From contig JACZYV010000002.1 of the NCBI GenBank assembly GCA_022570905.1, positions 1 to 49,484 of the forward strand: DNA of 49,484 nucleotides. The letters are read 5' to 3'. The notes under the pieces are model-generated. The model saw only the letters and a list, made by a program, of their open reading frames with translations, was not told the DNA's origin and made no database searches. Below are positions 122 to 10,881 of the stretch, one piece after another. The DNA comes from Chloroflexota bacterium. GTDB lineage: Bacteria > Chloroflexota > Dehalococcoidia > Lucifugimonadales > UBA3495. Numbering within the stretch: the stretch's first letter is position 1; every line of letters begins with the position of its first letter. A program made the position numbers and the translations under genes.

Positions 122-616
122 TTATTGGACCGTGATGGTCCCTGTCATGGAAGGATGGATACTGCAAAAATATGGGAACGCGCCCGAACTGTTGAATCTG
201 TGGCTGAAGGTACCGTTCTGACTGATCGCGGAACTATCGAATGCGCCGTCGAAGTTGGGCGATATCCCGGAGGTGGAGGTGTGCGCAGCGCTATCCAGGT
301 TGGTCCAGGTAACAGTTGTGCCGGCGGAGATAGTGAAACTCTCCAACGCGAAACTTTTGATCTGGGATGCCCTGGTCTGGCCCCCTGATGTTGCCCCGGG
401 GGTCGGCGTTGGCACCGAGCTGGAACCGCCGCCGCAGGCCATAGCCGCAATCAGACCCATCGATGCCAGCCCGCCGAACAGCGCTTGGCGCCATGAGAAT
501 GGTTTAGCCGCGGGATTTGTTCCGCCCCTTTGACCGTGCTCGATTCGGCTCATTTTTCCGAGGATTCCTTTTTGCCCGTCGGGCCAAATATAATTCATTC
601 CCCCGTCAAATTCCAC
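122..616 (-). CDS. Cupredoxin (amicyanin/plastocyanin-like type-1 blue copper protein), probable lipoprotein
   Basis: The C-terminal FCSIHPSMTGTITVQ gives a Cys-x2-His-x2-Met copper ligand loop, with an upstream His in SAAHTSTS. An N-terminal hydrophobic stretch ends in the lipobox-like AAMAC-GGGSS. The start is uncertain (GTG 616 or ATG 553). Confidence 0.75.
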   Translation of the reverse strand: MEFDGGMNYIWPDGQKGILGKMSRIEHGQRGGTNPAAKPFSWRQALFGGLASMGLIAAMACGGGSSSVPTPTPGATSGGQTRASQIKSFALESFTISAGTTVTWTNLDSAAHTSTSGISPNFDGAFDSSAISQNGTFSHRFNSSGAFPYFCSIHPSMTGTITVQ

Positions 617-632
617 TCAGCGTGGGCAGGTT

Positions 633-1805
633 TTACGGCGCCGGCGTGGCGGTCGTGGGAGCCGATGGCGCCGGGGTCGGCAACACGCCCTTTCTGGAAA
701 CGAAATAATAGGGGTCCGGCTGAAGCAACATCTGGCTCACGAACAGGTCCAGCGCCTGGTCGGAGAAGTAAACGTAGTAGGGCGAAATCGAAACCCGGGA
801 AGGCCTTACGCTGTCCAGGAAGTAGCCCCATTTGTCTATCCTGCCATCCAGCGATGGCGAGGCCCGCACAACATAGCTGGCCACGTTGGCCTCGTCGACA
901 TAGTTGTCGGCTAGTTGGTCGAAGGGTCCGTCATAGTAGTCGTTGATCGTCGCGTTTTGGCCGCGGATGGCCACCAGCACCTTTCTGGCGTCGTGGGCGC
1001 GGTCAACCCAAAATGCGAATCCGCTCCGCCGCCCCACCAAAATATCCTCACCGTGGGGCATCAACACATCGGGCAGAGGCACCTCTTCGTTCAGCACCCA
1101 ATTGAAGTAATTACGCTCGGTATTGAACAGCAGGATGAAGTTGTAACCTGACTCATCGTAGGTCTTCTCGATGTATTCTTCGCTCTCGCCAAGTTCGAAG
1201 AGGGCCGGAGGCTCTTGGCTGATCTGGTTCAAGTTGAAGATTACCTCTTTACCGTCGAAGCGGACCTTGAATGTGAACCTGTCCAACTCTTCGATCCTCA
1301 ATCCGTCGGCGTCGGTGAAGAATTTGTTCCGGACCAAGCGGGGCTCGGTGACGTAGGGCGACTCCTTGAACTCGAAGTAGGCGAAAGACAACACGCCGCG
1401 CTCACGCCGGCCCGCCGCCAGACGGATGTTGCCCCACAATTGCTTACCGTCGACGAAGAGTTTGAAGTAGTAATAGTTCTCGGTTGGGTAGACAACGACT
1501 TCGTCGGGCAGGCTGGAGAATACGAAGGTGAATACCTCATCCACATTCTCCACGTCAAGGGCTTTGCTTCGGAGGCCCTCCAGCCATCTCTGGTTGAAGA
1601 CCAGGTAGGGCTGGTCTCCGGTGGTGACGTTGGCGGCCGGAGGAGGAGCCGGCGTTCTGGTGTTGGCGGAAACCGCCGGCGCGTCCCCGGAGCCGGCTTC
1701 AGGGCTGGAAGCCGCTCCTCCGCCGCATGCGGCCAGCGCCAGCAGACCAAAACCAATGGGAGCCAGGAACCGTCCCCTGCCTGTGATGGATATCGTGAGA
1801 TTCAT
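633..1805 (-). CDS. Uncharacterised lipoprotein (~390 aa), no domain recognised
   Basis: Long ORF with high GC3. ATG 1805 is preceded by GGAGAAGGG. The signal peptide ends in LALAAC-GGG (lipobox) and is followed by a Pro/Ala-rich linker. The C-terminus is also Pro/Thr/Ala-rich. Confidence 0.7.
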   Translation of the reverse strand: MNLTISITGRGRFLAPIGFGLLALAACGGGAASSPEAGSGDAPAVSANTRTPAPPPAANVTTGDQPYLVFNQRWLEGLRSKALDVENVDEVFTFVFSSLPDEVVVYPTENYYYFKLFVDGKQLWGNIRLAAGRRERGVLSFAYFEFKESPYVTEPRLVRNKFFTDADGLRIEELDRFTFKVRFDGKEVIFNLNQISQEPPALFELGESEEYIEKTYDESGYNFILLFNTERNYFNWVLNEEVPLPDVLMPHGEDILVGRRSGFAFWVDRAHDARKVLVAIRGQNATINDYYDGPFDQLADNYVDEANVASYVVRASPSLDGRIDKWGYFLDSVRPSRVSISPYYVYFSDQALDLFVSQMLLQPDPYYFVSRKGVLPTPAPSAPTTATPAP

Positions 1806-1874: not shown

Positions 1875-1903
1875 ATTATCTTACCCCTCTAGAGGTTAGT
1901 CGA
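1875..1903 (-). promoter_or_regulatory. Candidate sigma70-type promoter for the lipoprotein/cupredoxin pair
   Basis: The minus strand reads TCGACT - 17 nt - GATAAT, about 70 nt upstream of ATG 1805. Confidence 0.3.
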
Positions 1904-1967: not shown

Positions 1968-2183
1968 TCAGTTCGATCCCGAGTGTACTGCATCGTGGGA
2001 GCCCACCGCTTCGTGGTCCGACAGGAAGGCGTCATGGGAGCCGGCATCGTAATGAGACGATAGCGCCGGATCGTGGGAGGCAGTCTCGTCATGGTTGGAG
2101 ATCACCGCGTCATGAGAGCCAACATCGTAGTGCCTCGACAACGCGACGTCGTGGGAGCCCACCTGGTCGTGGGCGGACAACAC
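1968..2183 (-). CDS. His/Asp-rich tandem-repeat protein (minimal ORF from GTG 2183; the repeat frame stays open upstream to 2480)
   Basis: Repeated SHDxxLSxH[YF]DxG units. It is the only frame open across the whole repeat array. Differences between units in the SHD core are synonymous in this frame. No Shine-Dalgarno precedes GTG 2183. Confidence 0.5.
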   Translation of the reverse strand: MLSAHDQVGSHDVALSRHYDVGSHDAVISNHDETASHDPALSSHYDAGSHDAFLSDHEAVGSHDAVHSGSN

Positions 2184-2312
2184 GGAATCGTGGGAAGCCG
2201 TCTCATAGTGGGCCGACAGGGCAACGTCGTGGGACCCGCTTTGGTCATGGCCCGACAGGAAAGCGTCGTGGGATCCCGCATCGAAGTGGGTCGAGAGCGT
2301 GGCGTCGTGGGA
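1971..2312 (-). repeat. Head-to-tail 39-bp tandem array, 8 full units plus a 30-bp partial unit
   Basis: The core GGC TCC CAC GAC (plus strand gtcgtgggagcc) recurs every 39 nt. Confidence 0.9.
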
Positions 2313-2353
2313 ACTGCCGGATAGGGCTGCGGGAGGTGCAATGGTGAGCGATG

Positions 2354-3061
2354 CTAGCTTTGTGAAACGATCTCGCCGTCCACCAGGTCCAGACGTCTCC
2401 GCGCCGTGGCCGCCAGGTCCAGGTCGTGGGTGGCCACGATCACGGTGGCCCGGCGGGACGCAGCAACCTCGCCCAGGGTCTCAGCGATGGACCGGGCGGT
2501 GGCGGTGTCAAGTTCACCGGTGGGCTCGTCGGCAAATACCACCTCAGGCCCAGCCACCAGCGCCCTGGCGATGGATACCCGCTGTTGTTCGCCGCCGGAG
2601 AGTTCAAAGGGACGGTGGCGGGCGCGGGTGCCCAGCCCCACCGCCCGCAGGGCCTCGTGGGCCCGCTGCCTCCGTTCCCGCCAGGACATGCCGCCGATGT
2701 GCAACGGCAATTCCACGTTTTCCTGGGCGGACAGCAAGGGCATGAGCCCGAATGATTGAAAAACGAAACCGATCTTATGCCGCCGCATCTCCACCAGGTC
2801 CGCCTCCCGCATCTCCGCCAGATCATCGCCGTGGAAAAGCACCGTGCCCGTGCTGGGACGGTCCAGCCCGGAGAGCAGATTGAGCAGCGTGGTCTTGCCG
2901 GAACCGGACCGGCCGGTTACCGCCAGGAATTCCCCCTGTTCGACGGTTAGACTGATGGCCGACAGGGCCGTCACGGCGGTGGCGCCTGACCCGAAGACCC
3001 GGCTTACATCCAAGGCCGTGAGCACCGGCCCGTTGGTTCTATTGGCTTGCATTACATCCAT
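2354..3061 (-). CDS. ABC transporter ATP-binding protein, MacB/LolD-type (ATPase 2)
   Basis: Walker A GRSGSGKTT, LSGLDRPSTG, signature [15 protein letters not shown], Walker [14 protein letters not shown]-loop ATHD. Confidence 0.9.
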   Translation of the reverse strand: MDVMQANRTNGPVLTALDVSRVFGSGATAVTALSAISLTVEQGEFLAVTGRSGSGKTTLLNLLSGLDRPSTGTVLFHGDDLAEMREADLVEMRRHKIGFVFQSFGLMPLLSAQENVELPLHIGGMSWRERRQRAHEALRAVGLGTRARHRPFELSGGEQQRVSIARALVAGPEVVFADEPTGELDTATARSIAETLGEVAASRRATVIVATHDLDLAATARRRLDLVDGEIVSQS

Positions 3062-4087: not shown

Positions 4088-7000
4088 TCATCCCGCATCT
4101 CCCATCCTGAGTACCTGCTGCACTTGTATCTTTGAGCTCAACCACGCCAGCCAGACCACCGTTACCACGGTGACCACCGCCAAAACCAGATAGGACACCG
4201 AGAGCGTCAACCAATCGGTGGTGAATGCCATGGGCGGCGTAACGCGCTCTCCTTCTTCGGCCACCTCCATCAGGGGCAAGAGGCTCGATCCGATCAGTTG
4301 GCCTACCCACGTTCCCAGGGCCACGCCGCATAGAACGATCAAGAATAGATTAAACCATACGATACCCCGTAATTGTCCGCCGGTCGCGCCCAGGGTCCGC
4401 AGCAGGGCGAACTCGGTCTGACGTTCCTTGGTGTCAAGGAACGAGAACAACATCACTCCCGAGCCGCTGGCCAGGGCCACCGCCAAGAACAAAAGCACCA
4501 GAAGGGCGCCCCAACCGGCGTTCACCAACGGTTGGTCCACCCGCGACGCCACCATGGCCTCCGCGTCAAATACCTCCCTGATGCTGACGCCCAACCGCTT
4601 CATTGACTCGTTGACCCGGCCGGCATCTCCCGCATCTCCCAGGTTATTCGACGCGCCAGGGACCGGCACGCCGGGGGTAGAGGTCAGGTCGATCCATATC
4701 TCGTTGGCTCCGGACAGGGGTATGCGGCTGTGTTGATTGGACGCGGCCGCAAACCTTTCCAGGTCCACCACCACAAAGGGTTTGTCCCCCGGGTCCAGCG
4801 TTGGGAAATAATTGGCCACGGCGGCGATGTTGACCAGCACGGAAAAGGTGGACAGCCCCAAGATCACGTCTTCGCCCACGGAGGCATCGGCCAGCTTCAA
4901 GAACTCTTCGTTGACCACCGCCGGAACCGGGGCCTCCGTTGGACCGGGTCTCAATCCCCGCATGCCGACGCCGCCGCTGGCCCAGCTGAACCGCATGGAT
5001 AATGGGAACTGGCCGCCCCCCGCCGACCCGCTGGTCTCCAGGGCGTATAGGCCCGGCCGCGAGAAGTCTTGGATCACCGACCAATCCTCCGGCGATCGAA
5101 AATCGGCCAAGGTCACCGGTCCGCTGGGAGTCAACGCCTCCAGTCTTCCCAGGAACACTGCTCCCAAATCGTCCGACCCAAAGGTGCGGAATCGGTCGGT
5201 GACTTGCAAGGACTGAAGCGTGAAGGGAGGAACCAGAGAGATGCTGCGCGCCTCGTTGGTGAAACGGCGCCCGACGGCAACCACCGGCGACAGGTCGGAT
5301 TGGATCTTGTTCCAGCCCTGCTCTCCCAAATCACCCACCCAAGTGTCGAAATACAGTCCTTGAGCGTCACGCAGCCTGGCCCATAGGTTGGCCCCCGAGT
5401 CGAGCCCGGCTGGTTGCACCCAGATGGACAGACCGGTCACGTCAGCGGGCAAAACCAAACCTTGGGGGCCTTCCGGCCCGTCCAACAGCAACTGGGCCAA
5501 CTCGTTGATCGACTTCCCGCCGGCCAGGTCGTCCCTGAACCAGGCCACATCCGCGATCCGGGAAGCGTCCACCGCCAGAACCGCGGCCGAGGAACTAAAC
5601 CCAGTGGTGGTGATCTGCCCGTTGGTGCGGTACACGTCCGCGGCGTGGAGCACCTCCGGGAATTTCCGCACTTCTTCGGCGAACCTTCCGCCAGGTCTAG
5701 CGCTGGAAACCCCGCTGTGACGGATCCTCAAGTCAGCTCCCGCCGCGTATAGGGCCCGCTCCTTCTGACTCCGTTCCAATGTCGAACTGAAGGCACTGCC
5801 GATGACACCGAGAGCGGTGGCCAAGGTCAGCAACACGATCAAGATACCCGGCACCATTGGGTCTCGGGATACATGGCGCAGCGAGTGCACCAACCAAGAC
5901 GGAGCGAAGGGACCGGCCAGCCGCGAAAGAAGCATGGCGAACCACGGGAATATCCGCATGACCACCAACCCGACCGCCAGAAGCCCCAGGACCGGTCCCA
6001 ACATCAGGCTGTAGTCGATCTCCAGTTCCCGGCTGCCCACCGATTGGACCAGGAACGAACCCCGGCTTTGGATCTGCCACCAAAGAAGGCCGATGAGGGC
6101 CAGCAGCAGGAAGTCCAGGTAGTAACGATGCAGGAAAGACGCCGTGGGAGGCCGGGCCCCGGTCTGCCTCGCTTCCACGATGCCCTGTCTGGCCGCCGCC
6201 AGGGTGGCCACCGTGAACACCACCACCGCGAGAATCCCTCCGGCCAGCCCCAGCAGAACGGCTCCTTGAGACACAGTTACCGGCACACCGGATAATTGGT
6301 CGGCCCCCCCGCCCAAACTGAAGAAAACGTTGCCTAGGACCCTGACCACTCCCATGGCCAAGAACGGTCCAATTATCACCGCCGGGATACCCAGCAGCAG
6401 ACCCTCTCCCAGTCCTAACATGCCCACCTGCGCCGTGGTGGCGCCCCGGCTTTTCAGCATGGCGATCTCGCTGGAGCGGGAACGGACGATCAAGCCGGCC
6501 ACCAAAGCCAGATAATAAAGCAGGATCCCGGTGATCAGAAACACCACCAGAAACAGGGGCACCCTGGCCAACAATAATTGCTCGTCGAAGTCGGTCAGCA
6601 GGTTGTCCAGCCGGATGGAGAAGCTGGAATTCTTCAGATTGAATCTGATGTTATTCTCGGCCCGGAGGATGGTCTCCCGCAGGTCCCCCACATCTCCGGC
6701 CCGCAGTCCCTCCCGGTCCAGGTAGTAGAACCAGGTGACATCGGTGTACAGGGTCGGATACTCGCCGAGCACCCGGTTCAAGATGGCCTCTTCGCTGGTG
6801 AACAACGGCACGATGGTCCACCGGTCGTTCTTGACGCTGAAGTCCTTTTTGACCCGATACCAGAACTCGTCATCCGGGTCGACAAGCTCAAAAACCCCGG
6901 ATATCCGCACCGGCATGGAGGGCGGGTCGGTGAACGACGCCGCCGGGAAGACGTCCATCGTCTGGCCGACCTCCAGGCCCAGCAGCTCCAGGCCCAGACC

Positions 7001-7525
7001 GTCCACGGCGACGTCCACCGGAGTGCCCGGTGGCGCGGCGGCGTTTAGCGCCCCCGGCCAACTCCCCTGTGTCAGCGTGACCCGGTCCGGCGCGAAACCC
7101 GACATATAAATGATGGACCCCCTGGGCCGGATATCGTTGTCCAACTCCAGTTGCGGGTGCCCCTCGAAATAAAAGGTGGCGGTGTCCAGCACCCGTGCCT
7201 GTTCTTTCACATATGGAGCGAAGGGGGCGGATATCTCGTCTTGGGCGAATCTCAGCCGTTCCTGGTAAACCGCGCGGCGTCCCGAGGTCGTGGACGGCTC
7301 ATCCTGGCTGCTGAACGACCGCATCGAGATATTGACCTCTTCGGGGGGAGCCTGGAGCAGCGTGTGGCGCAGCGAAGCGTTGGACAATAGGTCGGAGAAG
7401 ATCACGCCGCTGGCCATCAGCGCCACCGCCATGAGGATGCCGCCAAAAAGCACGGCCTCCAAACGCCAGCCGGAAACGGCTCTCCGGACGGCCATCACGT
7501 AGGCGAACCGGATCATGGGCATCAT
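4088..7525 (-). CDS. FtsX-family ABC permease, fused double-FtsX type (1145 aa, ~10 TM, two large extracytoplasmic domains)
   Basis: By eye, the hydrophobic spans follow the pattern TM1, ~300-aa hydrophilic domain, TM2-7, ~420-aa hydrophilic domain, TM8-10. The start overlaps the upstream stop by 1 nt (TGATG). It is a paralog of 7525..10881. Confidence 0.8.
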   Translation of the reverse strand: MMPMIRFAYVMAVRRAVSGWRLEAVLFGGILMAVALMASGVIFSDLLSNASLRHTLLQAPPEEVNISMRSFSSQDEPSTTSGRRAVYQERLRFAQDEISAPFAPYVKEQARVLDTATFYFEGHPQLELDNDIRPRGSIIYMSGFAPDRVTLTQGSWPGALNAAAPPGTPVDVAVDGLGLELLGLEVGQTMDVFPAASFTDPPSMPVRISGVFELVDPDDEFWYRVKKDFSVKNDRWTIVPLFTSEEAILNRVLGEYPTLYTDVTWFYYLDREGLRAGDVGDLRETILRAENNIRFNLKNSSFSIRLDNLLTDFDEQLLLARVPLFLVVFLITGILLYYLALVAGLIVRSRSSEIAMLKSRGATTAQVGMLGLGEGLLLGIPAVIIGPFLAMGVVRVLGNVFFSLGGGADQLSGVPVTVSQGAVLLGLAGGILAVVVFTVATLAAARQGIVEARQTGARPPTASFLHRYYLDFLLLALIGLLWWQIQSRGSFLVQSVGSRELEIDYSLMLGPVLGLLAVGLVVMRIFPWFAMLLSRLAGPFAPSWLVHSLRHVSRDPMVPGILIVLLTLATALGVIGSAFSSTLERSQKERALYAAGADLRIRHSGVSSARPGGRFAEEVRKFPEVLHAADVYRTNGQITTTGFSSSAAVLAVDASRIADVAWFRDDLAGGKSINELAQLLLDGPEGPQGLVLPADVTGLSIWVQPAGLDSGANLWARLRDAQGLYFDTWVGDLGEQGWNKIQSDLSPVVAVGRRFTNEARSISLVPPFTLQSLQVTDRFRTFGSDDLGAVFLGRLEALTPSGPVTLADFRSPEDWSVIQDFSRPGLYALETSGSAGGGQFPLSMRFSWASGGVGMRGLRPGPTEAPVPAVVNEEFLKLADASVGEDVILGLSTFSVLVNIAAVANYFPTLDPGDKPFVVVDLERFAAASNQHSRIPLSGANEIWIDLTSTPGVPVPGASNNLGDAGDAGRVNESMKRLGVSIREVFDAEAMVASRVDQPLVNAGWGALLVLLFLAVALASGSGVMLFSFLDTKERQTEFALLRTLGATGGQLRGIVWFNLFLIVLCGVALGTWVGQLIGSSLLPLMEVAEEGERVTPPMAFTTDWLTLSVSYLVLAVVTVVTVVWLAWLSSKIQVQQVLRMGDAG

Positions 7526-10500
7526 CAGATGCCACCCCGCAGGACCTCGGCGGTGTTGAGCCGCCGGGCGGCCACCACGGCGAAAGCCACCGACAGGGCC
7601 GAGGCCGCCACCATTCCGGTCAAAACTCCGGCCATCAACCAGCCCCTAACGGACGGCAAAAGCGGCGGCACTGGGTCGTTTCCTTGAGGCGTCAGGTCCA
7701 CAAGTTCCAGCACCTCCAGTCCCGGCCAATAACCCATGGCGGCCCCGGCGGCGATGGCCAACACGGCGATGATCAACCGCTCCGTGGCCAGGGACAGAAA
7801 GAATTGGCGGTGCGAGAACCCCAGCACCCGGACCACCGCCAGGTCCATCCGGCCCATCCGGACCGACACCAAGGCGTGAACGGTCAGCGTCAGCAATACG
7901 GCGATACCGATGGCCACCATGCTGAAGATGGTCAGGCCGTCCCAGCCGCCGCCCGCCAGAGGGTTCCGCCCGGCCAACGACGCCACGGCTTCGGCGTCCC
8001 GCACGGAGACCAGTCCGGGTATCATGTCTGCTATATCTTCGATGACCTGCTCACGGTCCGCCGCTGCGTCCAGGGCCAGCCACATCTCGGCGGGCCGGCC
8101 TATAACGCTCACCGGCAGGCGTCTGGCGTACTCTCGAAAGTCGGACAGGTCCAGCAAGAAAAATGGCCGCCGGTCGGGTCTCAGCGTCGGGAAGTGGCTG
8201 ACCACGCCTACGAACTGCACCGGAACGGCCAGACTGCCCAACTTCACCCGCACCTGTTGACCAACCTGGAAGCCGGGACCACCGATGGCCGGGAGCGGGA
8301 ACGGACCCGGCGGCAGATGAATCCCCCTCTGACCATTGGCGATCGGCTCCTTCCAGGAGAACTGAAGGCCTGACCCCCCGGTCCGTGCGCTGATGCCGGC
8401 CCGCCGGGCCACGTCGGGAGTTTTACCCTGGTTGGCCAACGGCGCCCAGGGAGTCAGGCTCTCGAATCCCTCGATCACGAGTCCTTCCGTCCCCAATGAC
8501 GGGCCGAACGCGGTGATGTCGTCCAGGTGCAGGACCCCGTCTGACAACCGGTTGGACGGGGTGGTTGAGAAGAACAGCCCGACCAGCTCAAATGGCGGCG
8601 AGGCCAGGCCGGTATCGGGGAGGTCCCCGGTGAACAGCCTCCATGGTCCATCAACCGCCTTAACATCGCCCTCGTCCGCATCTGATGACTCCGGGACTTC
8701 CAGCTCCAATATGTTGCCCATGGAGATGGTGCGGTAGGAGCCGGTGGCGGTCATCACCCTGGCCCACATGTTCACGCCGAACTGCAGGTTCTTTTCGAAC
8801 AAAACGCCGCTGTCTACCCACACGCCCAGGGACACAGTGTCCTCCGGCAGTGGTATGCCGGTGCCGGAGAGGTTGGACGGAAAGGGTCTGGGCCGAAGAA
8901 GCCTGCTGATCCCTTGCAGACCTCCGGGAAAAAAGTCATCCCTGAACCAGGCGGTTTTCGCCAGCGCCCGGGGGTCCACCGCGAACAGGTCCACGTTCTG
9001 GCCAAGAGGACCGTCCAGAAGGGTGACCGAGTCGCGCATGATGGCGGTGACCGCCGTCACTCCCGTTATCTTTTCCAGTTTCTCCGGGGCGTCTTCGGGC
9101 AGGGCAGGGCCTCTCACCACCATGTTTCCGCCAACTCTGTAGCGGGCCTGGTCGCTCTGGTTCTGAGACAAACTGGACTGGAAGGTGGCTCCAAAGACCC
9201 CCAACGCCGTCGCCAACATCAGGATCACCGCCAATGAGCCGTGGGGAATTGGGTCTCTGGCCAAGCGCAAGAGTGAGAACTGGAACCAGGCGGCGCCGGC
9301 CCGTGTTCCGGCCCAGGCCAGCAGCCGGACCACCAGCGGCAACACGCGCAGCAGCAGGACGGCCGCCGCGAAAAGCCCCAGCACCGGTCCTAGGATCAGG
9401 GTCGGGTCCACATTGAGTCCCTGAGACGCCAGTCCTTCGGCCACGAACCCCTCACGGCCCTGCACCTGGAACCAGATCACAGCAACCGTAAGCACAGCCA
9501 GTATGTCCAGATAATAACGGTGCAGGAAGGGGACCGACGGGGGTCTGGCCCTGGACAGCAATGTCTCCAATGTGCCCATCCTGGCCCGGCCCGTGGCGGT
9601 GACCAGCAGTACCGCCAGGGCCATCACGCCCCCTAAAATCCCCATCCAAAACATATCTCCGGCCAGTCCCAGTGGAATGGGATCGGCGAACTCACCACCT
9701 GGATTGATGGTGTCCAAAAGCAGGGTTTTTACGATGACCCAGGCCAAGAACGGGCCCACCACCATGGCGGCAAGGACCACCACCGACTCCGCCATGGCCA
9801 GCACGCCGCTCACTTGAATCACGCTGGCGCCCCGGCTCCGGAGCAAGCCGGCTTCCTCAGCCTGACTCCGGCCCAGGGTCCCGGTGATGAGAGCCAGAAA
9901 ATAGAGGACCACCACCACGACCAGTGATAGGTACAGATACAACGGGATCCTGGCCAGGGTAAGCGCTTTTTCGAACTCCTCGATGGTGCGGCCCAGCCGG
10001 CTCAGCACCAGGGTGCGCGGGTATACCTTGTTCAGATCGGTTTCCAGGCCGAGGACCTGCCGTTTCACGTCGCTGGCGTTGCCGGCGGTCAGTTTACCGG
10101 CGTCCAAGAACAGGTAGAACCCGAAGTCGCCCACCAACGTCGGATAGCGGGCCCCGATACCCTGGAAGAAGTCGTCTTCGGTCACAAACAGAGGCACCAC
10201 CACCGACTCGCCAACGGGAACGATGTCGAAGTATATCGGCGCGCCCATCCAGTATTCCTCCCGGGCGTCGATGGGGTCGGCCACGCCCACTATCTTGAAA
10301 GTGATGCGCTCCGACGACCCCCGGCGGGGAATCAGGAATACCCGGTCTCCAACAAAATAACTCAGTTTGCGGGACGTCTCCGAGCCGACGACTACCTCGA
10401 TGTCCCCTTGGCCTTCCGGGTCTTGGAACGCTCCACTCTTAGGCCAACGCCCTTGCGTGAGAACCGAGTGTTCGGTGAAGCCGGTGAGGAAAAACGGGCG

Positions 10501-10881
10501 GCCCGACGGTGAGCCAAGCACCGGCTGTGTTGGTGTGTTCAGCAGGGTCAGATTCGGCTGGGTCCGCCCGAACCGCTCTGTGCTCCGCAGCATCTCTCCC
10601 AAGCGGTCGTTGGACGCCTGCTCGACCAGGTTTTTCAAGGGCAGGTAGTCCACCCTCCCCAGGGGCCGGTTTTGAGCCGTGACCTGGGCGTTATGGACCT
10701 CGGGGCTGAATGAGGCTACAGAGTGGCGCAGCCCGGCTTCGCCCAGGGCGCGGGAGTACAGGGCCCCAGTGGACATGATCGTCACCGAAGCCAAGATGCC
10801 AAAAGAGGTGACCGCCAGCAATAGCCAGGAATGGCGCAGCCGCCGGCGCAACAGCCAAGTTACCAGGGACAGAAGCTGCAT
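7525..10881 (-). CDS. FtsX-family ABC permease, fused double-FtsX type (1118 aa, ~10 TM, two large extracytoplasmic domains)
   Basis: Same topology pattern as 4088..7525, including the shared HRYYLD(I/F)L motif before TM5. GGAGGG lies ~13 nt upstream of ATG 10881. Confidence 0.8.
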   Translation of the reverse strand: MQLLSLVTWLLRRRLRHSWLLLAVTSFGILASVTIMSTGALYSRALGEAGLRHSVASFSPEVHNAQVTAQNRPLGRVDYLPLKNLVEQASNDRLGEMLRSTERFGRTQPNLTLLNTPTQPVLGSPSGRPFFLTGFTEHSVLTQGRWPKSGAFQDPEGQGDIEVVVGSETSRKLSYFVGDRVFLIPRRGSSERITFKIVGVADPIDAREEYWMGAPIYFDIVPVGESVVVPLFVTEDDFFQGIGARYPTLVGDFGFYLFLDAGKLTAGNASDVKRQVLGLETDLNKVYPRTLVLSRLGRTIEEFEKALTLARIPLYLYLSLVVVVVLYFLALITGTLGRSQAEEAGLLRSRGASVIQVSGVLAMAESVVVLAAMVVGPFLAWVIVKTLLLDTINPGGEFADPIPLGLAGDMFWMGILGGVMALAVLLVTATGRARMGTLETLLSRARPPSVPFLHRYYLDILAVLTVAVIWFQVQGREGFVAEGLASQGLNVDPTLILGPVLGLFAAAVLLLRVLPLVVRLLAWAGTRAGAAWFQFSLLRLARDPIPHGSLAVILMLATALGVFGATFQSSLSQNQSDQARYRVGGNMVVRGPALPEDAPEKLEKITGVTAVTAIMRDSVTLLDGPLGQNVDLFAVDPRALAKTAWFRDDFFPGGLQGISRLLRPRPFPSNLSGTGIPLPEDTVSLGVWVDSGVLFEKNLQFGVNMWARVMTATGSYRTISMGNILELEVPESSDADEGDVKAVDGPWRLFTGDLPDTGLASPPFELVGLFFSTTPSNRLSDGVLHLDDITAFGPSLGTEGLVIEGFESLTPWAPLANQGKTPDVARRAGISARTGGSGLQFSWKEPIANGQRGIHLPPGPFPLPAIGGPGFQVGQQVRVKLGSLAVPVQFVGVVSHFPTLRPDRRPFFLLDLSDFREYARRLPVSVIGRPAEMWLALDAAADREQVIEDIADMIPGLVSVRDAEAVASLAGRNPLAGGGWDGLTIFSMVAIGIAVLLTLTVHALVSVRMGRMDLAVVRVLGFSHRQFFLSLATERLIIAVLAIAAGAAMGYWPGLEVLELVDLTPQGNDPVPPLLPSVRGWLMAGVLTGMVAASALSVAFAVVAARRLNTAEVLRGGI

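Follow-up and report, generated by a model that had tools for sequence, protein, structure and literature searches.

A start-less His/Asp-rich repeat array in a Chloroflexota contig, probably the remnant of a gene for a large secreted protein

A short tandem array near one end of a Chloroflexota contig encodes a His/Asp-rich 13-residue repeat in a frame that has no conventional start. The best explanation is that it is the 3' end, no longer functional, of a gene that once encoded a large, secreted repeat protein rich in His and Asp; we give this reading a probability of about 0.7. On this reading the start-less frame is a case of ordinary gene decay, in which promoter, start codon and signal peptide were lost. 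The window (the whole stretch analysed, 49,484 nucleotides) lacks the ATG, signal peptide, N-terminal cap and spacer that relatives carry at the same locus. A preliminary description of this DNA had named a 5'-truncated relic among several options, and it is this option that comparison with relatives backs.

1. The array and its surroundings

The array is part of a conserved block of minus-strand genes. The features are given from upstream to downstream on that strand.

7525..10881, minus strand: large paralogous permease of 1118 aa that opens the conserved block
4088..7525, minus strand: FtsX/MacB-type permease, 1145 aa
3105..4052, minus strand: first ABC ATPase of the conserved block
2354..3061, minus strand: second ABC ATPase, complete (Pfam ABC_tran, E = 1.2e-35)
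2313..2353, minus strand: junction from the ATPase stop codon to the first SHD unit, 41 nt, reading ASLTIAPPAALSGS in the SHD frame
1971..2312, minus strand: SHD array, the probable remnant, with eight 39-nt units and a 30-nt terminal partial unit (SHDAVHSGSN)
1970..1968, minus strand: TGA stop of the SHD frame, directly 3' of the terminal partial unit
1875..1903, minus strand: promoter-like site TCGACT-17-GATAAT, a consensus match only, lying between the array and the lipoprotein gene
633..1805, minus strand: conserved 390-aa lipoprotein ('lipo398') with lipobox LLALAAC, following the array
122..616, minus strand: cupredoxin lipoprotein, amicyanin/plastocyanin-like, last gene of the conserved block

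The head-to-tail layout of eight 39-bp units plus a 30-bp partial unit (2312..1971) is as first described. The array translation was reproduced exactly, and a recount again gave 18 His and 19 Asp/Glu per 114 residues. The cupredoxin gene reported downstream is real (Pfam Copper-bind, E = 2e-6). Window units follow the pattern SHDxxLSxHxDxG, with the consensus S-H-D-x-x-[LI]-S-x-H-[FY or D/E]-[DEQ]-x-[GA]. All eight full units fit S-H-[DE]-x-x-hydrophobic-S-x-H-x-[DEQ]-x-G, in tandem and without spacers. Position 10 is aromatic (F/Y) in units 1, 3, 5 and 7 and acidic (D/E) in units 2, 4, 6 and 8, so that the true period is 26 residues. S1, H2, D3, S7 and H9 are retained in every unit, an observation that stands as a counterpoint to decay. 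Tandem Repeats Finder reported just 2.5 copies (2136-2234, 66% matches) because the units share only ~65-78% identity; the full array was resolved by a seed-and-extend repeat finder and in-register layout. The SHD translation matched nothing in Pfam (E <= 0.01), NCBIfam or the sequences of the PDB. An AlphaFold2 model of the remnant, built on a 5-sequence alignment, has a pLDDT of 49 and no secondary structure, and is uninformative.

The adjoining lipoprotein matched nothing in Pfam or NCBIfam. Its AlphaFold2 model (pLDDT 78, pTM 0.70) retrieved nothing from the PDB by Foldseek at E <= 0.001 and gave no functional clue.

2. Reading frame and past selection

The SHD frame is open from 2480 to 1968, and its first in-frame ATG, GTG or TTG codons are GTG 2183 and TTG 2180, with none upstream of GTG 2183. 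In these respects the preliminary description stands. It had also taken the SHD frame for the only one open across the array, which is wrong: a plus-strand frame is open from 1946 to 2344. This second frame has no start codon before 2336 and a pN/pS of 1.5, and is therefore not coding.

Differences between units in the invariant SHD core were said to be synonymous in this frame, and the counts over the units do show a bias toward synonymous sites. Pairwise differences at codon positions 1, 2 and 3 number 109, 93 and 193. Read in the SHD frame, the window units give a pN/pS of 0.43, against 1.27 and 1.85 in the remaining sense frames. In the core codons S1, H2, D3, S7 and H9 all 58 pairwise differences are synonymous. 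For the five terminal units dN/dS is 0.10 against the closest intact relative (L026) and 0.14 against a 5'-truncated one (L023), figures that come from 186 nt with saturated dS (0.8-1.2) and uncertain unit orthology. The window's own branch, obtained by hand from pairwise dN and dS in a three-taxon split, has a dN/dS of ~0.11. The idea of a coding repeat under selection, of the purifying kind, is thus supported, both by homologous proteins in the same frame and by the dN/dS of ~0.1 between orthologous units. As a sign of present function the intact frame is a weak argument, because in-register deletions between units fall on unit boundaries and keep the frame automatically.

The preliminary description had further proposed a frameshift, either biological or due to an assembly indel, by which the array is fused to the C-terminus of the ATPase; it was considered here as a programmed -1 event or a sequencing indel. 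The SHD frame does lie at -1 relative to the ATPase gene (2354..3061), and it meets no stop codon along the final 42 codons of that gene. At this GC content, however, an open run of this length is expected by chance in about 1 of 3 cases (an estimate from base composition), and the overlap read in the SHD frame (DPGRGCCVPPGHRDRGHPRPGPGG...) is unlike anything in the family. Positions 2357-2500 contain neither an X XXY YYZ heptamer nor a homopolymer of >=4 A/T (>=5 C/G). The window ATPase, 88% identical in amino acids to that of L026 and 83% to that of a second syntenic relative (L001), shares its final residues, DGEIVSQS, with L026 and terminates at the same residue as the L001 protein, which leaves no hidden indel at this end. 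Three relatives (L001, L026 and L008, the last with an ATPase of similar length) have a separate SHD gene after the ATPase, and no homologue with an ATPase-SHD fusion was found. Family members with an intact N-terminus are exported and the ATPase is cytoplasmic. A fusion is highly improbable.

3. The intact locus in relatives

In relatives the block runs permease, permease, ATPase, ATPase, SHD gene, lipoprotein, cupredoxin, and both permeases are of FtsX type and ~1100 aa long. The window array occupies the matching position, after the second ABC ATPase gene and before those for the lipoprotein and the cupredoxin. Its translation matches four family proteins in HMMER at E 3.6e-25 to 1.9e-6. 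All family matches found so far come from abundant deep-ocean SAR202 and other Dehalococcoidia/Chloroflexota. Over 530 family units S1 is present in 100%, H2 in 99%, S7 in 99%, H9 in 90% and G13 in 70%; His accounts for 15% of the residues and Asp+Glu for 21%, Cys is absent, and Lys/Arg are nearly so. Full arrays run from tens to >80 units of 13 residues (>1100 aa), and in L009 the aromatic/acidic alternation at position 10 holds over 81 units.

All SHD proteins with a recovered N-terminus, except the 5'-truncated L022-L025, have their own ATG, a signal peptide and a DHGxEE cap. This N-terminal module opens with a basic n-region, continues through a hydrophobic segment 15-20 residues long to A-x-A, and ends in D-H-G-x-E-E-SHD (examples are P0002, P0004, P0005, P0010, P0012, P0014, L008, L009, L014, L016 and L026). 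In close relatives the signal peptide and cap occupy ~45 codons after a spacer, which in syntenic relatives measures about 220 to 475 nt. From the ATPase stop codon to the SHD ATG there are 322 nt in L001 and 475 nt in L026; the window has 41 nt to its first unit. The 475-nt spacer of L026 includes a conserved promoter-like element and leads to an SHD gene of ~980 aa. The element, 38 nt long, was found in L001, L002, L013, L021 and L026 and is absent from the whole window with <=3 mismatches allowed. Upstream of the SHD gene the relatives also have a conserved leader of ~230 nt, in which Rfam recognized nothing at the gathering threshold (six loci) or at E <= 1 (L026).

The 3' end of the locus, in contrast to the missing 5' module, is canonical in the window. 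The C-terminal cap SH[DE]xxHS-xx(x)-stop is present (SHDAVHSGSN) and the lipoprotein gene comes next. The L026 gene ends in SHDAFLSNHEASGSHDAVHSGSS and the window in SHDAFLSDHEAVGSHDAVHSGSN, each followed by the stop codon. Other caps before the stop are SHDAVHSGSS in L026, SHDAVHSGSN in L023, SHDTVHSEQGP in L010 and SHDAAHSELNK in L019, and L007 reads SHESVHSEQ.... The lipoprotein gene, whose product is 82% identical between the window and L026, also lies 3' of the array end in L007, L010, L012, L018, L019, L020, L022-L025, L026 and L027.

4. The junction and the proposed deletion

Before the first unit the window SHD frame has no start codon of its own, no signal peptide and no DHGxEE cap. 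The 41 nt that separate this unit from the complete ATPase gene are too short to hold them. The junction translation ASLTIAPPAALSGS resembles neither a signal peptide nor the cap. Upstream of the first unit the frame reads ...RFTKLASLTIAPPAALSGS, a stretch that lacks both a start codon and a hydrophobic core. Searches of the window by tblastn with six family N-termini matched repeat units only, with neither a signal-peptide relic nor a second array elsewhere in it. The blastn homology to L026 stops 4 nt beyond the ATPase stop codon and picks up again in the array. The likeness of the junction to the relatives' post-stop spacer is marginal (32/1000 and 222/1000 shuffles reach the observed score), and as this likeness is not significant the breakpoints are not mapped to the base.

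Two finer readings of the junction were tried and set aside. A microhomology join at TTCCCAC, in a common ACCTCCC...TCCG..TTCCCAC pattern, is suggestive only: shuffling gave no significance, and the pattern did not reappear in a MAFFT alignment. The peptide IAPPAALSGS was considered as a diverged N-terminal cap (compare TPPAFTDHGADE in L009), but its tblastn score came from the SHD unit and the DNA comparison was unsupportive.

The following course of events is proposed from these comparisons. (i) A deletion would have removed everything from ~40 nt past the ATPase stop codon to the interior of the array. (ii) One or more further in-register deletions between units would have shrunk the array to 8.8 units. 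(iii) The frame would have stayed open since the deletions respected unit boundaries. (iv) The remnant is probably still transcribed within the operon RNA, as the minus strand showed no terminator from the ATPase gene to the array. (v) It would yield no normal product, for want of a usable start and an export signal. A start-less coding repeat at this site would be explained by deletion, and unusual translation is not needed.

The units at the end of the window array line up in order with those that close the L026 and L023 arrays. Its units 2-4 best match early units of L023, and its units 7-9 the L023 terminal units, which speaks for internal loss. Such an early-to-terminal jump is also the shortcut typical of assembly collapse, and the genome may instead hold an intact long SHD gene of which the assembler skipped the spacer, the signal peptide and most units. 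The array stands at the ends of two contigs each in three bins (L007/L008, L009/L010 and L011/L012), garbled frameshifts occur only within the array in the long-read assemblies L026 and L027, and the low dN/dS would fit a collapsed but truly intact gene. A collapse, however, needs two shared k-mers, and the left breakpoint sits in unique post-ATPase sequence; the relatives' post-ATPase sequence resembles a unit boundary over ~7-12 nt only, far below a normal k. The window units, just 65-78% identical, are easily assembled. Real deletions at the same locus also recur, with identical truncated proteins (P0004, P0029) from 3-5 independent samples. An artefact of this kind is judged improbable. 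Neither the homologue searches nor a scan of metagenome contigs with window-specific peptides found a second assembly with the same ATPase-41 nt-array junction, so that the deletion is known from one contig only. An exact-product look-up of the window ATPase returned no record.

5. Decay among close relatives

The closest relatives have decayed at this locus independently, and in several forms. In L001, L013 and L021 the signal peptide is kept with only 2-4 units, followed by an out-of-frame run into a start-less cupredoxin ORF. In L022-L025, which come from different samples, the arrays are 5'-truncated, with 167, 305, 551 and 577 codons, and the lipoprotein gene carries an in-frame stop and a frameshift. 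Unit number thus differs among close relatives, from 2-4 in L001/L013/L021 to about 11 to 57 in register in L022-L026. The array frameshifts of L026 and L027 were considered as pseudogenisation, which was rejected: the breaks look like garbled long-read consensus and are confined to the array.

The preliminary description had looked to orthologous loci for an answer. In relatives with an intact N-terminus the array has its own start, it is not fused to the ATPase, and its unit number is variable. Decay of the SHD frame in homologous loci had been named as evidence against a coding repeat under selection, and here the outcome is divided: the nearest relatives do decay, through different deletions and out-of-frame read-through. 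The low dN/dS (~0.1) means that the truncation is recent or that the remnant is still constrained. The truncation is probably recent relative to the divergence from the nearest sampled relatives.

Continued constraint would be expected if the remnant were still translated. Re-initiation after TAG 2354-2356 could occur at ATT 2340-2342 (12 nt downstream), CTG 2258, CTG 2219 or GTG 2183, giving a cytoplasmic peptide of 71-124 aa kept as a metal buffer. The 114 intact codons with all core residues, the low dN/dS, the closeness of the ATPase stop codon to the ATT and the RNA that is probably made fit such a peptide. The candidate starts are poor, however: none is preceded by a Shine-Dalgarno-like motif, and AUU and CUG reach ~1% or less of the initiation obtained with AUG in E. 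coli. Starting translation at ATT or CTG, as first suggested, is unsupported. Family proteins with an intact N-terminus are all exported, and a product that stayed in the cytoplasm would be misplaced. The window's architecture is seen in no homologue, in-register deletions explain the intact frame without selection, and the gene-calling pipeline behind the protein collection predicted no gene at the array. Present translation is unlikely, if the least so of the alternatives considered. The case for a non-functional remnant carries a wider caution: an intact frame with synonymous-biased units records past selection and in-register deletion, and is not proof of present expression.

6. The parent protein

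The lasting value of the locus lies in the parent family, a large and highly regular His/Asp/Ser repeat protein without a match in Pfam, NCBIfam, the PDB or the literature. These giant 13-residue-repeat proteins of marine SAR202 Chloroflexota seem to be undescribed; a literature search on the SHD repeat found nothing relevant. The family's conserved operon also carries genes for a cupredoxin, for a lipoprotein from an uncharacterised family (>500 members) and for an ABC transporter of atypical kind. The most likely parent is a poly-His/Asp protein that binds metal outside the cytoplasm and acts together with these three neighbours. A metal-binding role, which the preliminary description had suggested on similar grounds, is reasonably inferred from composition and the conserved cupredoxin linkage.

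A more specific picture can be offered tentatively. The giant (>1100 aa) SHD proteins of SAR202/Dehalococcoidia might form a metal-dependent solenoid or a disordered 'metal sponge' with up to ~160 His and as many carboxylates, and at the cell surface they might capture or store Cu, or some other trace metal, for the cupredoxin. They might be serviced by the unusual hetero-pair of ~1100-aa FtsX permeases and the lipoprotein, and their gene might be under frequent expansion, contraction and loss. If SHD proteins do bind metals, they bear on trace-metal acquisition in the dark ocean and are a possible source of designable metal-binding repeats. SHD arrays systematically break or garble assemblies, which leaves the family largely invisible in gene catalogues.

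7. Comparison with known systems

RTX proteins are one point of reference. Like SHD proteins, they are exported and carry a short unit containing Gly and Asp, repeated head to tail in long arrays, with two units per structural period (18 residues in RTX; the SHD super-period is 26), and their gene adjoins an ABC transporter. RTX arrays are unfolded without metal, which could likewise account for the low-confidence AlphaFold2 model of the SHD array. The differences are considerable. The RTX unit is a GGxGxDxUx nonapeptide that forms a Ca2+-binding beta-roll, whereas the SHD unit has 13 residues, is His-rich and lacks GGxGxD; the SHD translation had no match at E <= 0.01 in Pfam, HemolysinCabind included. 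RTX proteins use a C-terminal T1SS signal and an HlyB-type transporter. SHD proteins use an N-terminal Sec-type signal peptide, and their operon has a transporter of FtsX/MacB type.

A very high content of His and Asp/Glu is shared with His-rich proteins that bind metal or haem: Plasmodium HRP2 (AHHAHHAAD repeats), Helicobacter Hpn/Hpn-like and SilE/PcoE. HRP2, too, is secreted and built of tandem repeats. SilE/PcoE act as metal sponges in the periplasm, and their genes lie beside those for copper/silver efflux; the SHD gene lies near a cupredoxin gene. Unlike these proteins, the SHD family resembles no Pfam, NCBIfam or PDB entry in sequence. Its His residues stand singly within a fixed S-H-D ... 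S-x-H-x-D frame rather than in HH runs, its members are far larger (>1100 aa), and its metal binding is only putative.

The window locus itself compares with 5'-truncated pseudogenes, in which promoter, start and signal peptide are lost and the downstream frame is intact. It also resembles coding repeats that contract by unequal recombination or slippage, where unit number varies and sister lineages undergo independent deletions. From ordinary gene remnants it differs in no essential; only the degree to which the remnant units are preserved is unusual.

The repeat array and its reading frame

The His/Asp-rich array is best read, with a probability of about 0.7, as a recent remnant of a longer gene, truncated at its 5' end and internally contracted. 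The layout given in the preliminary description is confirmed on the minus strand:

2312..1971, minus strand: array of eight head-to-tail 39-nt units plus a 30-nt partial unit
1970..1968, minus strand: TGA stop of the array's frame, directly after the partial unit

The translation reported earlier also matches exactly; its 114 residues include 18 His and 19 Asp/Glu. As had been described, the frame is free of stops from 2480 to 1968, and its earliest canonical starts are GTG 2183 and TTG 2180, both within unit 4. The synonymous bias among units holds as well. Third codon positions carry most of the variation (109/93/193 pairwise differences per codon position), the frame's pN/pS among units is 0.43, against 1.27 and 1.85 for the two other sense frames, and at codons S1, H2, D3, S7 and H9 all 58 pairwise differences are synonymous. 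Along the array, unit position 10 is by turns aromatic (F/Y) and acidic (D/E), so that the real period is 26 residues. The frame had been called the only one open across the array, which is wrong: a plus-strand frame is stop-free from 1946 to 2344. This antisense frame is Arg/Gly/Pro-rich. Its first start lies no earlier than 2336 and its pN/pS is 1.5; it is a side effect of the GC-rich repeat and not a gene.

A family of exported repeat proteins

Among 5.8 billion clusters, the translated array matched four proteins, with E-values from 3.6e-25 to 1.9e-6, and profile searching across 1.84 billion representatives gave about 15 convincing members of the SHD family, named from the S-H-D opening of the unit. 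No member has a name, Pfam domain, NCBIfam model or PDB relative, and a literature search on these proteins found nothing relevant; the family appears to be undescribed so far. Scans of species-representative genomes and metagenome contigs located 15 SHD loci, whose named sources are without exception marine SAR202, Dehalococcoidia or Chloroflexota bins. All members with an intact N-terminus open with a basic n-region; a hydrophobic core (15-20 residues) and a small-x-small site come next, and the cap motif D-H-G-x-E-E then leads into the first unit, as in the homologue P0002 (MRFNPALAKPTRLFLVVALVLGALAGQVLTRPVHA/DQGPKESHD...). The consensus drawn from 530 units reads S(100%) H(99%) D/E(78%) x x [LIFVM] S(99%) x H(90%) [D/Y/F/E/W] [D/E/Q] x G(70%). 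His makes up 15%, Asp+Glu 21% and Ser 20% of these units; Cys is absent and Lys/Arg almost so. In locus L009, an ORF with a signal peptide starts at nt 6939 and leaves the contig still open after >1114 residues and >80 units, and the ORF of L016 has >1149 residues. Three bins each hold a split array at the ends of two contigs, which indicates that the array breaks short-read assemblies.

Near the 3' end of the array in one Chloroflexota bin (L012 1-1000), the unit changes to a shorter repeat of ~9 residues, (S)YHDPALSD(S/A), with SHDPVISD variants; the family thus has at least two kinds of unit. The arrays of distant relatives (L026 ~8040-8260, L008 ~4700-4900) are interrupted by a conserved island of ~50 residues outside the repeat (...AYEDIHDPAYSQELESAVEFGSDGSVVHTETVSAYYQDPRHEPSLS...), and the truncated ORF of L023 starts just within it.

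The conserved operon

Searches of relatives by tblastn with the window proteins identify one conserved block, in the order permease (~1110 aa), permease (~1140 aa), ABC ATPase (~310 aa), ABC ATPase (~240 aa), SHD gene, lipoprotein (~390 aa, no known domain) and cupredoxin lipoprotein. The window, which is a single contig of 49,484 bp, carries all members within 10881-122 of its minus strand, among them:

4088-10881, minus strand: two paralogous FtsX-type permeases of ~1100 aa each, ~28% mutual identity
633-1805, minus strand: lipoprotein gene downstream of the array, from an unnamed family of >500 members

The permease pair and the ATPases are an unusually large hetero-oligomeric MacB/LolCE-like transporter. 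In all syntenic relatives the two large permeases accompany two different ABC ATPases and stand beside the SHD gene. The lipoprotein family has many invariant residues (e.g. NYYDGPFDQLADNY) and no Pfam or NCBIfam model. Its AlphaFold2 model is confident (pLDDT 78, pTM 0.70) and matches no fold in the PDB at E <= 0.001.

Absence of the 5' module in the window

In syntenic relatives, 322 nt (L001), 475 nt (L026) or about 220 nt (L008) separate the stop of the second ATPase from the SHD gene. In five close relatives the spacer keeps a promoter-like element of 38 nt, TTGACT-N17-TACGCT, together with a conserved ~230-nt leader ahead of the SHD gene:

L001 9747-10000: promoter-like element and leader
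L026 6631-6895: promoter-like element and leader
L002, L013 and L021: promoter-like element and leader

The leader has no Rfam match and may be an unknown cis-regulatory RNA. One of its hairpins shows a compensatory change (ACGGT..ACCGT in L001 versus CGGCC..GGCCG in L026).

In the window, the first unit follows the ATPase stop (TAG 2354-2356) after only 41 nt. The promoter-like element was not found anywhere in the window at up to 3 mismatches, the leader is missing too, and tblastn with six family N-termini recovered repeat units only, with no second array. The ATPase is complete. Its C-terminus (...DGEIVSQS*) is the same as in L026 and its final residue is positioned as in L001, so that neither a signal peptide in an overlap nor an indel at the gene end is hidden there. 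The best reference is L026, with 88% identity for the ATPase and 82% for the lipoprotein. By blastn, DNA identity to L026 is 85.5% through the ATPase 3' end; homology ends 4 nt past the stop and picks up again within the array and in the gene for the lipoprotein. The L026 SHD gene has about 980 codons and ends in SHDAFLSNHEASGSHDAVHSGSS, the window array in SHDAFLSDHEAVGSHDAVHSGSN; on this comparison, the window is short of roughly 2.6 kb. The loss is not at the 5' end alone. Window units 2-4 best match early L023 units (78-83%) and units 7-9 match terminal ones (82-86%), which implies at least one internal unit-to-unit deletion. A pattern common to the junction and the relatives' post-stop spacer (ACCTCCC...TCCG..TTCCCAC) hints at a 5' join at a unit-boundary-like TTCCCAC; it is not statistically significant.

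The five terminal units give a dN/dS of 0.10 against their colinear counterparts in L026 and 0.14 against those in L023 (dS 0.9-1.2), and the window branch about 0.11 by a three-taxon split made by hand from pairwise values, all over 186 nt with saturated dS and uncertain unit orthology. Core residues are intact in every window unit. Both observations speak against a pseudogene that died long ago: either the deletions are recent compared with the split from these relatives, or the remnant is still constrained, or the gene is intact and the contig wrong. The open frame itself is no evidence of selection, since in-register deletions preserve it automatically. An assembly artefact is quite unlikely, because the left breakpoint falls in unique sequence, at most about 7-12 nt are common to the breakpoint sequence and a unit boundary, and the window units are merely 65-78% identical.

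Expression of the remnant

The remnant is probably transcribed within the operon RNA, given that the minus strand has no terminator-like site between the ATPase gene and the array and that a promoter-like site lies after the array, ahead of the lipoprotein gene. Its translation by re-initiation or from a non-canonical start seems unlikely. Re-initiation at ATT, 12 nt past the stop, would be inefficient, and the product would be without the signal peptide of full-length family members. No Shine-Dalgarno-like motif precedes ATT 2342, CTG 2258, CTG 2219 or the ACG codons. A frameshift fusing the array to the ATPase is highly improbable; the last 48 ATPase codons contain neither an X XXY YYZ heptamer nor a homopolymer run. 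The 42 open upstream codons in the SHD frame read DPGRGCCVPPGHRDRG... and bear no relation to the family. By our base-composition estimate, such a stretch stays open by chance in about one case in three at this GC.

Decay of the locus in relatives

Among the closest relatives this locus is also decaying, by differing routes. In L001, L002, L013 and L021 (ATPase 82-85% identical to the window over the recovered parts), the promoter-like element, ATG and signal peptide are kept, only 2-4 units are present and the lipoprotein gene is missing. The SHD ORF passes out of frame into the cupredoxin ORF, whose own start and (lipoprotein) signal peptide are gone:

L001 10250-10602: cupredoxin overlapping the shortened SHD ORF tail
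L013 8150-8500: the same overlap
L021 700-1031: the same overlap

In L013 the cupredoxin stop codon is also lost. A conserved frameshift into the cupredoxin was ruled out, since its frame relative to the SHD ORF is -1 in L001 and the other one in L021. The 137-aa product is identical in three independent assemblies, and the arrangement looks like a second, independent deletion at this locus.

In L022-L025 (contigs of up to 1.97 Mb, four samples), the lipoprotein is 89% identical across residues 133-398, the 3' two-thirds, and its gene has both a frameshift and an in-frame stop (ENY*YFKL). The arrays there lack a signal peptide, lie away from the transporter with transposase genes close by, and are open for 167, 305, 551 and 577 codons by sample. 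L026 and L027 retain the full canonical locus, with a few frameshifts in the array only. These fall in garbled long-read sequence (L027 10380-12400, L026 7690-7700; sample ERZ26167216) beside intact neighbour genes. They are probably consensus errors in the repeat and not mutations, and through them SHD genes will appear fragmented in gene catalogues.

Putative function and known analogues

The anomaly flagged in the preliminary description is ordinary gene decay. The SHD family that it reveals is moderately interesting. Composition, strict 13/26-residue periodicity, export and the constant linkage to genes for a cupredoxin, a lipoprotein and an FtsX/MacB-type ABC transporter suggest that the parent family is a putative extracytoplasmic poly-His/Asp metal-binding protein. 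The AlphaFold2 model of the remnant is not confident (pLDDT 49). Nearest in working principle are RTX beta-rolls and the His-rich metal sponges SilE/PcoE, Hpn and HRP2, neither group being homologous to the SHD family.
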